Source of the DNA: Escherichia coli
GTDB lineage: Bacteria > Pseudomonadota > Gammaproteobacteria > Enterobacterales > Enterobacteriaceae
NCBI RefSeq assembly: GCF_002854065.1
Contig: NZ_CP024154.1
DNA: 64,000 nt
Strand: one strand, 5' to 3'
Made by a program: the position numbers and the translations under genes
Part shown: piece after piece, positions 12,937-26,431 of the stretch
Layout of the letters: every line of letters begins with the position of its first letter
Position numbering within the stretch: the stretch's first letter is position 1
Notes under the pieces: model-generated
Databases searched by the model: none
What the model was told of the DNA's origin: nothing
Seen by the model: the letters and a program-made list of their open reading frames with translations, nothing else

Positions 12937-13000
12937 TTAACCCTTGCCGTCTGCCTGTGCAGGCGGCAGGATACGTTCAGACATCTCACCAGGAGGAACC

Positions 13001-13951
13001 GTGAGTAAGAAGAAAAACACCACAACGCCCACGCCGCATGATGCCGCGTTCCGGTCGTTCCTGGCGAATCCCGACGTTGCCAGGGATTTTCTGGAACTGC
13101 ATCTTCCTGCGGAGCACCGGCAGTTGTGCGACCTGTCCACGCTGAAGCTGGAACCCGCCACCTTTGTTGAGCCGGACCTGCATCAGTACGCCAGCGATAT
13201 CCTCTGGAGCGTGAAAACCACCGGGGGTGAAGATGGTTATGTTTATACGCTCATCGAGCACCAGAGCACAGAAAATCTGTACATGCCTTTTCGCATGTTA
13301 CGCTACAGTGTGGCGGCGATGCAGAGACATCTGGAGCAGCACAAAACGTTGCCACTGGTGATTCCGGTGCTGTTCTATCACGGTGAGCGCAGCCCGTACC
13401 CGTACAGCATGAACTGGCTGGACTGTTTTGAGAATCCGGCACTTGCGGCTAAAATATACACAAAGCCGTTTCCGCTGGTTGATATCACTGTCGTTGATGA
13501 CAATGAAATCATGAACCATCGCCGGATGGCCGCACTGACGCTGCTGATGAAGCATATCCGCCATCGTGACATGATGGAGCTGCTGGACAAACTCCCGCAG
13601 GTCATGGTGGAAATTTCAGATGAACAGGTGCGTGTTCTGATTCATTACATCGTTAACGCAGGGGACTCTGTATCACCGGAATTTATGCGGGCGCTGGCTG
13701 AGCGTCTGCCGCAGCATGAGGATAAACTGATGACTATCGCAGAACGTCTTGAGCAAAAAGGTCGCCAGGAAGGCAGGATGGAAGGACGCATGGAAGGACG
13801 CATGGAAGGACGCATGGAAGGACGCATGGAAGGAGCGCTTGAAAAAGCCCTGGCTATTGCGTGCCAGCTTCAGAAAATGGGGATGACGCCGGAGCAGATT
13901 AAGCAGGCTACCGGACTTTCCGATGACGAACTGAAGAACATCACTCACTGA
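13001..13951 (+). CDS. Rpn-family (YhgA-like, transposase_31) PD-(D/E)XK recombination-promoting nuclease
   Basis: N-terminal YhgA-like motifs (HDAAFRSF, ASDILW, YTLIEHQS); SD CAGGAGGA before GTG 13001; C-terminal tail carries (EGRM)n repeat; terminator hairpin at about 13963-13990. Confidence 0.75.
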   Translation: MSKKKNTTTPTPHDAAFRSFLANPDVARDFLELHLPAEHRQLCDLSTLKLEPATFVEPDLHQYASDILWSVKTTGGEDGYVYTLIEHQSTENLYMPFRMLRYSVAAMQRHLEQHKTLPLVIPVLFYHGERSPYPYSMNWLDCFENPALAAKIYTKPFPLVDITVVDDNEIMNHRRMAALTLLMKHIRHRDMMELLDKLPQVMVEISDEQVRVLIHYIVNAGDSVSPEFMRALAERLPQHEDKLMTIAERLEQKGRQEGRMEGRMEGRMEGRMEGRMEGALEKALAIACQLQKMGMTPEQIKQATGLSDDELKNITH

Positions 13952-20904: not shown

Positions 20905-23208
20905 TCAGAATCTTTTTTTACGACTCTCTTGTTTTCCACCTGATGGTGTCTGAGCGACATTTTTTTTATGGGGCGGGGATGCAGTTAGATCCGGTACAGG
21001 TAACAGCATCTCCAGGGGGAGCAGAGTATTCAGAATCGCCTTCACTGAAGGTATATCTTCAGGACCAGAGTGTTCCTCTTCCGGACGATTCAGTGTGATA
21101 TAACATACCCGGCGTTCTTCCCTGGTTGTGTTATTGATAGTGTGCACAGCCTTTTTCCACAGTTCGTTTGCCCGGGATTCGATATCTGTATCATATTGCG
21201 GAAGCAGATCCAGTGATGTCTGCGCTGTTGCCAACCGGCGCTGGAATGTATCAATGATACGGTAAGGCTCTGTACGGTTTTTACGACGTTTACGGGATGG
21301 TTTTGCTGTCAGTACACCGATGATGCTGCTGACATGCTCCGGTGTGGGGAGCCTGCGCTGCACTGTCCTGGGGACGAGACGGCGGAGACGCTCCAGCCGG
21401 GGGGCTTCAACGGAAATATAGCGGTTGATGACCACCGGATCACTGTCGCAACTTTTCTCGCTGTCCGGAATATACACAGAGGCTGACGGCACCACATCCC
21501 CCTGGAAAACGGTAAAGAACTCACCGGCATTCAGTCTGATCAAATCCTGCACGTCGATTTTGCTTTCCATCTGGATGGTGATCTGGTTACCGTCCACCCA
21601 GGACTCACCCATCACACCATCGTGGCGCTGCAGGCTGCCCATTCTGGCCCGTGCCTCTTCACCGGCGGCATTTTTCACCGTTCTTGCCGTTTTGTCGTCA
21701 CTGACAATGCGTCCGGCGAATTTGGTGCCGGCGTTCTGCATCAGTGTGGCGGTGTTGGTGGCGGAGGTCTGCCCTTCAATTCGCTCCTGATCCTGCGCCG
21801 TCATTATCAGGGAAAACTCCAGTGAACGTACCTGGGTGGCCTCCACAGCAATGCGGTCTGTGTAGTAGGCACCGACTTCATCAAGGATACAGATATAGGG
21901 GAAGCTGCCTTTGTATTTTTTGACTTCCAGGGTCTGTGCATCTGTGCCTTCCAGCCGGTAGCCCAGGTCACGGGCGAGGAGCATGCTCTGCTGGGTGACG
22001 AACATACGACCGAGTGCCGACGTGGTATGAGCCGATGTGTCCAGTGCAGGGATCATCACAATCAGAATGCGGTCGCTGTGAATACTGTCGCGAATATCGA
22101 TGTCGCCGGCATCTGCCGCAAAGACGTCCCCGAAGGTTTCGGCAAAGGTTGTGAACGTTTCCGAGAACTGACCGGAGAGATAAGCATGCTGTTTACGGGG
22201 CTCCTCAGTCCAGGCTGACGGCGTTCTCACCAGTGACATATCGAATCCCGGGACATCCTGCAGGTAGTTTCGCAGTGGTGCGATAGCTTCTTCCGGCCAC
22301 TGGTCATCAAGGCCACGGCAATAGAGTTTTGCCATCCCTTCCAGCGTCATATGTTCCCGTAACATCTGCAGGGACATGGTTTTACCTTCCCGGACGCACC
22401 AGAATTTTGTGCCAAAGACCAGGGCCTTGTTCATGGCTATCGCCCGTGACTGCCATTCTCCCCCCTGAACGTTCTGGGGTAGCATGGACTGCATGGTTTC
22501 GGCGGTGAAGGCTTCTGTGCTGAATGCGAACGGGTTCCAGGTGTTTGACTGTGGGCGGGATTTTTCGCCGCTCTGAATGATTTCACTGCGGGATTTTCCG
22601 CCGTTCATGAAGTTGATGACTTCGATATCATCCTCCCTGCCAAAACGTCGGGAGAGATACCAGATTGTCCTCGTGGTATCGTTCTGTGCCTTTCCGTCAA
22701 CAAAGGTAAAGCCTCTTCCCCAGCAGAGCGGGTTGAGCAGCCAGGCAAAGGTGGTTTCTGTTTTACCGCCACCGGTGGTGGCAAAAAACATGACATGCCG
22801 GGTGAGGTCATCCATGCTCAGCCAGAGCTCACGACCGATATCGTTGATACGGCGGTAACCGACATAAAAAATCCCCCGGGCGGGGAATGTTTCATCCGCT
22901 TCATACTGAAACAGGGTGGGCCAGAAGCTGAAGAGGCTTCTCCTGACCTTTCTGTCCTGGGAGGGGTCATCAAGGCTGAGTGTCATGGGCATACGCAGGG
23001 GGCATCGCCAGCGTTGCAGCATGAATATCACGGAGGTGACCAGGGTGAACAGCAGGCAGACAGGAAGGGCCAGTGGCCATATCAGCGCCGTAATGATACT
23101 GCCGGCCAGACACAGACCAGTGATGTTCAGGTTATGCAGTGCATTCCACAACGGGTTTCCCCAGGCCGTGCGGTGTATGAGGTCAGGATTAACGTGGTGC
23201 TGGCTCAT
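20905..23208 (-). CDS. trbC: TrbC-like conjugation ATPase (putative type IV coupling protein) with N-terminal transmembrane segments
   Basis: 767-aa ORF; Walker A FATTGGGKTETTF; position downstream of trbB. Confidence 0.75.
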   Translation of the reverse strand: MSQHHVNPDLIHRTAWGNPLWNALHNLNITGLCLAGSIITALIWPLALPVCLLFTLVTSVIFMLQRWRCPLRMPMTLSLDDPSQDRKVRRSLFSFWPTLFQYEADETFPARGIFYVGYRRINDIGRELWLSMDDLTRHVMFFATTGGGKTETTFAWLLNPLCWGRGFTFVDGKAQNDTTRTIWYLSRRFGREDDIEVINFMNGGKSRSEIIQSGEKSRPQSNTWNPFAFSTEAFTAETMQSMLPQNVQGGEWQSRAIAMNKALVFGTKFWCVREGKTMSLQMLREHMTLEGMAKLYCRGLDDQWPEEAIAPLRNYLQDVPGFDMSLVRTPSAWTEEPRKQHAYLSGQFSETFTTFAETFGDVFAADAGDIDIRDSIHSDRILIVMIPALDTSAHTTSALGRMFVTQQSMLLARDLGYRLEGTDAQTLEVKKYKGSFPYICILDEVGAYYTDRIAVEATQVRSLEFSLIMTAQDQERIEGQTSATNTATLMQNAGTKFAGRIVSDDKTARTVKNAAGEEARARMGSLQRHDGVMGESWVDGNQITIQMESKIDVQDLIRLNAGEFFTVFQGDVVPSASVYIPDSEKSCDSDPVVINRYISVEAPRLERLRRLVPRTVQRRLPTPEHVSSIIGVLTAKPSRKRRKNRTEPYRIIDTFQRRLATAQTSLDLLPQYDTDIESRANELWKKAVHTINNTTREERRVCYITLNRPEEEHSGPEDIPSVKAILNTLLPLEMLLPVPDLTASPPHKKNVAQTPSGGKQESRKKRF

Positions 23209-24313
23209 TGTGATACTCCTCGCTATCTGTTGCTTTCAGGAAGAGGCGAACGGAAGTGGCGTCTTTCAGGATGCCGGACGGCAGGTGCCAGCCGGTATCT
23301 GATAACACCCAGGGGGTTCCGCCAAAACCGAACTGGCGGAAAGCCTGGTTATTGACATCGATGGCAGCACGTGCGGCGGTCAGACACTGTCCATCCTGTG
23401 CGGCCGGTGCATCGCCGGTGGGGGCCATACCACTGTCAGCGGAATACAGCTGATGCCATCCGGTCGCCCGTTTTTGTGAGTCCGGTTCACACAGCAGCGG
23501 AGCAGTCCGCTTTGTACTGGACTCCCCGCCAATCACGGAGACCGGATAAATCACCACGCTGAATTCCCGGGCCAGTTGCTTAAGCGCGGGTTCCAGCAGA
23601 CGGCAGTTGATGCATGCGGGGTCAAGGAAGGCGTACAGCGTGCGTTCATGACCAGTGGACAGGTTAATGGTGAACATCCCCCGGTCTGCGTTGCGTTTAA
23701 GTACTGTGGCCAGATTACGGCGGGCCTCAGCGGCCTGAACGTGTTGTTCTTCCGTCACTGCCGTCGGGGCGGGGGCAGAAGAAGGTTCCTGCTGTGTGGG
23801 AGCCGGGCGGGCCGGGATGCTGTTAACATGATGTTCCGTATGTGGGCGTGGTGTCTCTGTGTCGGTTACTGGTTCAGCTCTCCATTCCTGAGATGTAGGG
23901 TAAGCCAGCGTGGAAGGGGACTCTGCCTTCATCCAGTGGTAACCTGCAACTGTCGCCGGCAGAGCAATTCCGGCGATAAAGCCACACATCAGTGTCCGCC
24001 AGAAGCCATTTTTCCGGGAGGGATGTTTTCCTTTTCCGGCATATTCGGCATCCAGGCAGGCATCAATCGCTGAGAGCATTCTGCCGATGTGATGTCCGGG
24101 ACGTTCTGCATCAACGGTATCAACAAGCACCGTTTCAGTTATTTCGCGAAAAGGGGAACTGAAGGACAGGTGCATCAGCCTGTTATTACGGTTAATCAGT
24201 GCGCCCAGTTCTGTTACCGGCAGGATGGCAATCACCTCCCGATTACCGTCAGGGTACAGGGCGGTCAGGGACAGGTGTTTATTATTCAGTGTTGCAGTGT
24301 AGTGGATGGTCAT
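23189..24313 (-). CDS. trbB: TrbB-like thioredoxin-fold disulfide isomerase
   Basis: CxxC motif (DPACINCRLLEP) in C-terminal half; Pro/Thr-rich linker; trbA-trbB-trbC order. Confidence 0.7.
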   Translation of the reverse strand: MTIHYTATLNNKHLSLTALYPDGNREVIAILPVTELGALINRNNRLMHLSFSSPFREITETVLVDTVDAERPGHHIGRMLSAIDACLDAEYAGKGKHPSRKNGFWRTLMCGFIAGIALPATVAGYHWMKAESPSTLAYPTSQEWRAEPVTDTETPRPHTEHHVNSIPARPAPTQQEPSSAPAPTAVTEEQHVQAAEARRNLATVLKRNADRGMFTINLSTGHERTLYAFLDPACINCRLLEPALKQLAREFSVVIYPVSVIGGESSTKRTAPLLCEPDSQKRATGWHQLYSADSGMAPTGDAPAAQDGQCLTAARAAIDVNNQAFRQFGFGGTPWVLSDTGWHLPSGILKDATSVRLFLKATDSEEYHNEPAPR

Positions 24314-25635
24314 TGTTCTTTTTCCTTGTCGGCGGGATGCTGTTTTTCGGTGGTTTCGGTGGTTTCGGTGGTTTCGGTGGTTTCGGTGGTTTCGGTGGTT
24401 TCGGTGGTTTCGGTGGTTTCACCAGTGTCAGTGTCTTCGTCGTTATCATGGCGGCGGGGTATCACGTCATCCGTGAGTGACCAGCGGGTCCTGATCTGAC
24501 GTTTACGATCGCGATCTGGCTGAGGTTCGTCCCATATCAGGCCCAGCCCCAGCATGTCCCGTCGAAGCCCTTCAATGGCCTCTTCCACACAGGGTTCCGG
24601 GCAGGGGAGGCCGAGACGGCTGGCTTCATTTTCTGCCCGGGCAACGGCCACCACGCCGGCCCCTTCGATGAAGCCTTTTGTGGTGTTTGCCCGGTGAAGG
24701 GCATAGAAGAGCGTCCGGTCAACGCCCTTGAGCCACAGCCAGTTGGGGGGCGTCAGGCGCAAATCATGTGCGTAAAGCCAGACAAGACCGCTGCGAACGT
24801 AACGGTGCTGCCTGAGCCACTGTTGTGCGTCTTCTGTTTTTATGACCCGGATAAAGGCGTTTCTGGCCAGTGAATACACTGGCGTGCTGAAACGCCCCTG
24901 GTCCCGCTTGCTTTTGAGTCTGCAGGAGAGGTTGAGGTTATTCATCAGGGAAACAGCCGATTTCCGGTCCCCAAGGAAGAACTGCAGGCCAAAGACGGCA
25001 AAGAGTGCTTTTTCATGTGGAGCCATGTCTTTCCAGGTGGTCAGAGGCTGGCCCAGTTGCGCCATAAAGCACTGGCGCGTGGCCGCAACATCGAGCTGCA
25101 TGTTGCGGATAAGGTTGTTCTGCTCCACAAAGGCTTCGGGGGTTAGAGCGACACGGCGCTCGGGACGTTTTTGTCCGTGGAAGAGTCTGTTGCTGTCTCC
25201 GTCAGCCAGAACGGGGGCGATCGCCGGTGACAGTGATGAAAACAGATGTGGCAGCGTGTGGATATTCAGTGGTCTGCGGGTGAAGCGGGGCTGGGCCGGA
25301 TGCTGAAACCACATCCACAGAAAGCCGATCGTCATGGGAAGCAGAATCAGCCAGAGGATCCCCACGGTCTGTGACATGACATCCAGCCACTGGCTGAAAG
25401 TGATCGTTGCAGCGTTGTTGGCGGTGTTGGCCAGCAGGTTATAACGGGGGGCGGCAAAATGGTGAAAAGGCCCCCAGTCAGTCATCCCCCACATTGTGTG
25501 CAGGATCAGGCAGGTGGCAAAGACGATGTCGGGTAAAAAGAGCCAGATGAGAAGCGCAAAGAGCAGACATATGGTGCCAACGATATACCATATGTTCATC
25601 GGGTCTTCTGTTGTGGGGGAGTGTTGGTAAGACAC
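24310..25635 (-). CDS. trbA: TrbA-like membrane protein with C-terminal (TET)n repeat
   Basis: 441-aa ORF with N-terminal TM segments; identity assigned by position upstream of trbB; 9-bp in-frame tandem repeat at 24349-24420. Confidence 0.6.
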   Translation of the reverse strand: MSYQHSPTTEDPMNIWYIVGTICLLFALLIWLFLPDIVFATCLILHTMWGMTDWGPFHHFAAPRYNLLANTANNAATITFSQWLDVMSQTVGILWLILLPMTIGFLWMWFQHPAQPRFTRRPLNIHTLPHLFSSLSPAIAPVLADGDSNRLFHGQKRPERRVALTPEAFVEQNNLIRNMQLDVAATRQCFMAQLGQPLTTWKDMAPHEKALFAVFGLQFFLGDRKSAVSLMNNLNLSCRLKSKRDQGRFSTPVYSLARNAFIRVIKTEDAQQWLRQHRYVRSGLVWLYAHDLRLTPPNWLWLKGVDRTLFYALHRANTTKGFIEGAGVVAVARAENEASRLGLPCPEPCVEEAIEGLRRDMLGLGLIWDEPQPDRDRKRQIRTRWSLTDDVIPRRHDNDEDTDTGETTETTETTETTETTETTETTETTEKQHPADKEKEQ

Positions 25636-25810: not shown

Positions 25811-26083
25811 GCGATCCCAGGGAGAGTGGGTGGCTCTGGCCCGGAGGAAGTCTCTTTTCAACTAACGTTACCAGAATATCGTTATATTCACCTGATCGCA
25901 ATCTGTTCGTTACAGTCTATTGTTCCGGGAGTAGCGATATCGCCTGAAACAAGTATAATCAGCAAGTTAGCCTTGTCTGGAGACTTACCTTCGCATCAAT
26001 CCATTTGCCGTATTTTCGTAAAATTCAACAGGAAATATTCAACGGGAGTGAGAGAACTGCTGTCCGGGGAGGAGGTACAGACG

Positions 26084-26117
26084 CAAAAAAACCGACTGGT
26101 GAGGCCGGTTTTTTTGC
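26084..26117. terminator. bidirectional terminator-like hairpin (copy 2)
   Basis: AAAAAAACCG-ACTGGTGAG-GCCGGTTTTTTT, nearly identical to copy 1. Confidence 0.5.
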
Positions 26118-26431
26118 GATTCCGGATCGAAGTTGGTAGCCCTGACCGGAAGATAACTGCCTATAACTGACTATGAAATAATACGGCTGAAATAATATTT
26201 CTGCAAGCACAGTATAAGTATATACTCGGTGTGTCAGCTTTGAGGCACGTTCTTTCCGGCATATCGTTCACCGGGATGAACAGGTTGCAAGTCCTGGCCA
26301 AAACATCAGGTGGTGCTGGTTTTGGTGCTCTGGCCGGAGAAGAACTGTCTATAACTGACACTATAGAAAACGTGGCGACAGGCAATGTAAGGGCAAACCA
26401 CGGTGTTCTTTCTCCATTGATGGAGAAGCGG

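Follow-up and report, generated by a model that had tools for sequence, protein, structure and literature searches.

An in-frame 9-bp coding repeat in plasmid trbA that differs in length between near-identical relatives

What does a perfect run of 9-bp units do near the 3' end of a conjugal transfer gene: does it switch the gene on and off, tune the encoded protein, act on translation of the next gene, or chiefly mark lineages? The question is raised by a 64,000-nucleotide stretch of Escherichia coli DNA (contig NZ_CP024154.1; hereafter, the window). An earlier note, made from the letters of the window, had described eight tandem copies in a trbA-like gene and had predicted that their number would vary and might modulate the protein or mark strain-level variation.

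The array and the gene that carries it

Tandem Repeats Finder placed a perfect 9-bp tandem array at positions 24345-24420 (8.4 copies, 100% matches, 0 indels, score 152). As the earlier note had counted, 24349-24420 holds exactly 8 units in register GGTGGTTTC; the unit quoted there, GGTTTCGGT, is a rotation of the same repeat, starting at 24352. The unit reads GAAACCACC on the coding strand and TTTCGGTGG on the plus strand. Translation likewise bore out the proposed in-frame Glu/Thr tail near the 3' end of the gene: the 441-aa open reading frame yields (Glu-Thr-Thr)8 plus Glu at about residues 406-430, directly after DTDTG, so that the C terminus runs ...WSLTDDVIPRRHDNDEDTDTG-E(TTE)8-KQHPADKEKEQ*. 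The array and its surroundings comprise the following features.

24310-25635, minus strand: trbA coding sequence, 441 aa, GTG start (open reading frame list and annotation of relatives)
24562-25083, minus strand: DotM_C-like cytoplasmic domain, TrbA residues 185-358 (Pfam PF23127, PDB matches, AlphaFold)
24313-24510, minus strand: predicted disordered C-terminal tail, TrbA residues 376-441 (AlphaFold2 pLDDT)
24345-24420, minus strand: perfect tandem array (Tandem Repeats Finder, sequence, translation and chance control)
24323-24327, minus strand: AAGGA, Shine-Dalgarno-like, putatively serving trbB (read from the sequence)
24310-24313, minus strand: ATGA, shared by the trbA stop and the trbB start (open reading frame coordinates and sequence)
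23189-24313, minus strand: trbB, 374 aa, DsbC/thioredoxin-like (open reading frame list and annotation of relatives)
20905-23208, minus strand: trbC, 767 aa, type IV coupling protein, DotL/VirD4-like (open reading frame and annotation of relatives)

A two-unit 18-mer of the repeat matched the window 7 times, every time within the array, whereas 0.03 matches were expected from dinucleotide shuffles. None of 100 dinucleotide-preserving shuffles reached 7 matches, which rules out a chance origin. We also discarded the idea that array units recur elsewhere as iterons or binding sites, as the 18-mer had no match outside the array in the 64-kb window. Open reading frames in other frames and on the plus strand also cross the array (VVS, FGG, WFR, and PKP repeats), but they exist because the repeat has no stop codons, and we rejected them as stop-free artefacts. 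Among the frames that cross the array, only the minus-strand trbA frame continues a DotM_C domain and matches homologues.

Only one tandem repeat besides the trbA array scored at least 50 in the window. A second perfect coding repeat lies at 13778-13834 on the plus strand, in the open reading frame 12944-13951, where 4.8 copies of the 12-bp unit ATGGAAGGACGC encode (GRME)n near the C terminus of an Rpn-family recombination-promoting nuclease. This repeat varies too: the closest backbones, CP056607.1 and CP088412.1, have 1 and 0 exact units, respectively, and the Rpn-family coding sequence is 24 bp shorter in CP088412.1 than in CP056607.1.

The call of a trbA-like gene stood up to comparison with annotations and profiles. 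Close relatives of this open reading frame are annotated as "IncI1-type conjugal transfer protein TrbA", and residues 185-358 match Pfam PF23127 (DotM_C) at E=5.2e-47 (160.7 bits; cut-off 27). DotM chains in the PDB (6EXA, 6EXB, 6EXC, 6EXE, 6SZ9, and 5X1U) match residues 186-358 with E values from 2.5e-7 to 4.1e-6. Against the DotM/IcmP equivalog NCBIfam NF033890, TrbA scored 72.4 bits, below the cut-off of 230; it is therefore a DotM relative but not an orthologue by the equivalog standard. Judged by these similarities, TrbA is a predicted DotM-like subunit of a type IVB (MPF_I) coupling complex. The exact 441-aa protein had no match in a collection of 15 billion proteins. Its stop codon is the TGA at 24310-24312. 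Annotation pipelines disagree among relatives over the start, some preferring the in-frame ATG at 25599 (Met13), which gives 429 aa, to the GTG at 25635. The longer form (MSYQH..., GTG in the window) is favoured by the MSY... N terminus conserved in IncI1 TrbA.

The gene order trbA-trbB-trbC, running from 25635 down to 20905, is that of I-complex plasmids, and relatives of this transfer region are typed MPF_I and MOBP. In relatives, trbB is annotated as "DsbC family protein" (its match to Pfam Thioredoxin_2 is weak: E=2.4e-4, 21.8 bits, under the 27-bit cut-off), and the trbC equivalent as "TraM recognition domain-containing protein / TrbC". The AAGGA motif sits 9 nt upstream of the trbB ATG, within the last trbA codons (..DKEKEQ), and the ATGA overlap is compatible with trbA-trbB translational coupling. 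Upstream of trbA, Rfam AgrB (RF02891), the antisense RNA of the dinQ-agrB type I toxin-antitoxin locus, matches 26083-26170 on the minus strand (47.7 bits, gathering score 40, E=4.9e-6), a region annotated in relatives with small hypothetical proteins only.

Copy number among related plasmids

A megablast search with the trbA region at 90% identity or more returned 473 records in PLSDB and 398 among complete E. coli genomes, from which we sampled 59 PLSDB and 58 complete E. coli RefSeq records at even steps down the hit lists. In all 117 sampled records, the trbA region differed in length from that of the window by exact multiples of 9, corresponding to 1-16 units in the PLSDB sample and 1-13 in the RefSeq sample; there was no out-of-frame array allele among them. 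We then counted units directly in 16 related loci (L001-L013, L016, L018, and L019) and obtained 1, 1, 1, 2, 3, 4, 4, 6, 7, 7, 8, 10, 11, 12, 13, and 16, against 8 in the window. The change always fell inside the array, and the flanks were intact.

Length differed even where little else did. Flanks at least 99.8% identical to those of the window accompanied 1 unit (pMTY2805_IncBOKZ, tail GETTEKQH), 4 units (CP088388.1, NZ_CP069999.1, and NZ_LR883004.1), 8 units (CP090250.1), or 13 units (CP134937.1 and NZ_CP145708.1). The 25-kb backbone had no 100% match in PLSDB (best 99.2%), and its two closest relatives, 99.0-99.2% identical, carry 7 units rather than 8. The pace of change in the array therefore exceeds that of point substitution, and the array marks strain- or plasmid-level variation. 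The variation that the earlier note had foreseen is thus present across complete plasmids, in 9-bp steps; an invariant copy number among relatives, which that note had named as grounds for giving up the idea, was not what we found, and its suggestion of a strain-level marker holds for otherwise near-identical plasmids. Full-text literature searches turned up no paper describing a repeat in trbA; PMC8004404 does mention a "9 bp tandem repeat", which adjoins pilJ of IncI1 and is not in trbA.

Could the differences be artefacts of sequencing or assembly, with the true array invariant? Draft assemblies do often break here: "partial" TrbA proteins from drafts (P0002 and P0061) have their last residues immediately before or at the array (exactly ...DTDTG or ...DTDTGE). 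Short-read contigs evidently break at the repeat, which could distort some copy numbers; counts from drafts call for this caution, whereas the closed records used here are unaffected. The variation appears in closed plasmids from many laboratories and in two collections, in exact 9-bp steps between intact flanks, and long reads can span arrays of 9-144 bp, as short reads mostly can too. The backbone search also returned 18 records of S. sonnei plasmids, every one 109,845 bp long; one read directly has 6 units, and two others have a matching trbA-region span, so that the records checked from this one outbreak agree. The array may have been stable over that outbreak, or the records may be reference-guided assemblies. 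Taken together, we give the artefact explanation almost no credence.

The product names given to the alleles differ ("IncI1-type TrbA", "conjugal transfer protein TrbA", "hypothetical protein", and "DotM-related subunit"); among the fetched loci, alleles of up to 8 units are named IncI1-type TrbA and those of 10 or more bear the other names.

The arrays have the composition of slippage-prone repeats. All 11 directly read related loci with at least 4 units are pure ACCGAAACC. A second allele type, with the 3' junction ...ETRHPADKEKAQ, was read in three loci and has 1-3 units; two of the three carry synonymous ACC-to-ACT interruptions. Pure arrays are usually unstable and prone to slippage, whereas interrupted arrays are stabilised. 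Two E. coli TrbA proteins of the ...ETRHPADKEKAQ type (P0073 and P0078) have, in addition, a 21-residue internal tandem duplication (AQNNLIRNMQLDVAATRQCFM twice), an in-frame change of 63 bp around the N-terminal edge of the DotM_C match in an essential transfer gene.

The trbA array is an ordinary in-frame, slippage-prone coding variable-number tandem repeat. It resembles other bacterial coding repeats and contingency loci in being a perfect short-unit array that is polymorphic among near-identical sequences and whose purity is tied to instability. The most plausible mechanism would be slipped-strand mispairing during vegetative or conjugative replication, by which the array would grow and shrink in whole 9-bp units. 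A unit of three codons keeps slippage in frame: all that changes is how many Glu-Thr-Thr triplets (from 1 to 16 in the alleles seen) stand between the conserved segment WSLTDDVIPR and the final residues, whose codons overlap the ribosome-binding site and start codon of trbB. In classical contingency loci, genes are turned on and off by frameshifts or altered promoter spacing. The trbA alleles differ from these in all being in frame, so that only tail length changes, and we rejected an on/off phase-variable locus on three counts: the 9-bp unit, the frame kept in all 117 sampled records, and an unchanged junction to the Shine-Dalgarno sequence and start of trbB.

The array is confined to one branch of the I-complex. 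MOB-suite typed 12 of 15 fetched PLSDB relatives as IncK2/Z, alone or with other replicons, and the other three as IncI1/B/O, IncI-gamma/K1, and IncFIA/IncFII; MPF_I was assigned in 14 of the 15, and one related RefSeq plasmid carries the name "IncBOKZ". The host plasmid is of the IncB/O/K/Z type (I-complex "cluster 2"). By tblastn, TrbA homologues occur in 3,556 plasmids, about 1,500 of which (IncI1-type, roughly 76% identity) align only to residue 394. A representative IncI1-type TrbA, 402 aa long, lacks the repeat: it terminates in ...LPRTPATDNEF, and a spacer of 18 nt separates its gene from trbB. This restricts the array to the B/O/K/Z branch, and comparison with IncI1 proper makes it a lineage-specific, recent addition.

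The acidic tail and its possible roles

An AlphaFold2 model of TrbA, built with a 25-sequence alignment, shows a helical body modelled for the most part with confidence: pLDDT is mainly 80-92 over the N-terminal helices and the DotM_C domain, with long N-terminal helices predicted at residues 12-32, 34-52, 55-73, and 80-111 (pLDDT 83-89). Residues 376-441, with pLDDT 25-33 and no secondary structure, form a tail that is predicted to be disordered and that contains the array. The variable tail that contains the repeat (residues 392-441) has a net charge of -12 (pI 4.2), and the wider cytoplasmic region (residues 141-358) one of +9 (pI 9.7).

The segment ...GLIWDEPQPDRDRKRRIRTNWSLTDD is conserved across TrbA lineages, and variable sequence follows it; these tails are net negative in 19 of 21 anchorable homologues, the window included. 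Most enterobacterial lineages have a short acidic tail that ends in Phe (...RPGQEDDEQPF, ...GDDDDLIF, or ...ATDNEF; homologues P0003, P0004, P0010, P0012, and P0019-P0033, and loci L014 and L015), resembling the acidic-Phe tip of SSB. In B/O/K/Z TrbA, the terminal Phe is missing and the tip is replaced by DNDEDTDTGE(TTE)nKQHPADKEKEQ, which runs into the trbB start. As a net negative tail is kept in most lineages, the tail may matter, and its length may not be strictly neutral.

One way in which it could matter is by tuning function: the acidic (ETT)n tail would serve as a Glu-rich pseudo-signal or partner-binding element, making trbA a graded contingency locus. The target of the tail could be TrbA's own basic DotM-like domain, onto which it would fold back, or else TrbC or a transferred protein; slippage would then adjust substrate recruitment or the rate of transfer. 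The model for such an interaction comes from Legionella, where DotM binds the acidic, Glu-rich C-terminal tails of effectors on arginine patches (Meir et al., PMC5802825), through R196/R197, R217, and R314/R315, and requires roughly 25-30 residues of acidic peptide (PMC5802825); the same authors state the function of TrbA as unknown. The opposite charges of tail and domain in TrbA and the net negative tails of its homologues fit this idea, but the charge complementarity is suggestive only. In our reading of the alignment, just the R314 equivalent of the peptide-binding arginines is kept in TrbA (R217 becomes D203, and R315 becomes T). The AlphaFold model leaves the tail undocked, although a prediction of disorder is compatible with docking in cis too.

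Evidence on transfer also weighs against tuning. TrbA itself is needed: a trbA knockout of pMS7163B (I-complex cluster 2) abolishes transfer, which complementation restores (PMC10286972), and a trbA knockout of pCT (IncK) gives no transconjugants (PMC6868128). From published coordinates, pCT trbA is 1263 bp long, the same as the 1-unit alleles read here, so by length pCT carries a 1-unit allele; the plasmid is described as highly conjugative (PMC6868128). A minimal array thus appears compatible with efficient transfer, which argues that repeat length is not critical. Plasmids with 1 to 16 units were all typed conjugative, the conjugativity of the long alleles being a MOB-suite prediction, and this suggests that length is tolerated. 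IncI1 TrbA, moreover, works with a 9-residue tail after the common ...TDD(I/V)(L/I)PR segment. We consider tuning by tail length unlikely.

A role in RNA or translation would place the effect downstream, the repeat being an unstructured, U-free stretch that acts as a ribosome standby site or enhancer, or as a spacer in trbA-trbB coupling. The overlapping stop and start, the position of the trbB Shine-Dalgarno sequence within the last trbA codons, and a U-free repeat mRNA that is 32-107 nt ahead of the trbB start and has less structure than shuffles are all in keeping with it. The array-region mRNA has a minimum free energy of -10 kcal/mol (z=+1.6 versus shuffles) and no stable structure, and there is no Rfam match at the array. 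However, ribosomes translating trbA traverse this region in any case, which leaves little weight to upstream structure; the segment from the array to the trbB start is constant in all alleles, so copy number leaves Shine-Dalgarno context and coupling distance unaffected; and IncI1 manages with its separate spacer and no array. Given weak folding and the constant segment, an effect on trbB translation is unlikely, and we regard this role as very improbable.

We infer instead that slippage makes the array grow and shrink and that its length is close to neutral. Probably, then, the array changes by whole units, in frame, in a disordered acidic tail whose length is largely tolerated. Because length changes are apparently tolerated, the array would drift fast and act as a lineage marker rather than a switch.

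Related systems and significance

The closest described analogue is the variable (QQP)n tract of F-like TraD, which is QPQQP in F and 23 residues long in R1 (PMC3245843). Both are in-frame repeats of a short unit, both belong to disordered sequence that extends the C terminus of a coupling-complex protein, and both differ in length between related plasmids; the TraD tract has been proposed to underlie plasmid-specific differences (PMC3245843), a precedent that lends the tuning explanation some support. The two proteins differ in kind: TraD is a VirD4-type ATPase of MPF_F with a neutral Gln/Pro repeat, whereas TrbA is DotM-like, belongs to MPF_I, and has an acidic Glu/Thr repeat. TraD also has a defined TraM-binding tip after its repeat, whereas the TrbA tail has no known partner.

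TrbA is most like TrbA of IncI1 R64 and DotM (IcmP) of Legionella, with which it shares the DotM_C domain and a gene position upstream of the coupling ATPase gene, as well as a requirement for transfer in relatives (PMC10286972, PMC6868128). It departs from the 402-aa IncI1 protein in having the array, and from DotM in that the arginines that bind Glu-rich peptides are mostly not conserved. The Legionella DotM chain in 6SZ9 has 380 residues, and the TrbA match ends at its residue 362. Like the Glu-rich or E-block signals of Legionella effectors, the tail is C-terminal, disordered, and acidic, contains Glu, and is about as long. A three-residue period occurs there too, in the (EKT)4 tract of the effector Lem8, although the Lem8 EKT peptide did not bind DotM (PMC5802825). 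Unlike an E-block signal, the acidic tail of TrbA is on the DotM homologue itself and not on a substrate.

A more specific proposal, which we hold to be a long shot, can be made: the (ETT)n tail would be a slippage-tunable intramolecular mimic of a Glu-rich signal, competing for the DotM-like basic surface or binding TrbC and so grading transfer. If true, the plasmid would have a heritable and quickly reversible means of trading horizontal spread against the cost of carriage.

The main use of the array is in strain marking. It is a fast-evolving marker that is easily sized by PCR, and outbreak or One Health tracing could use it to tell apart IncB/O/K/Z resistance plasmids that are otherwise nearly identical. 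Annotation is affected as well, since the array breaks short-read assemblies and leaves "partial TrbA" entries, and longer alleles are named inconsistently. Finally, the natural allelic series in the acidic tail of TrbA, seen against the acidic C termini found across the family, is a cheap handle on whether this tail has a partner in I-type conjugation.
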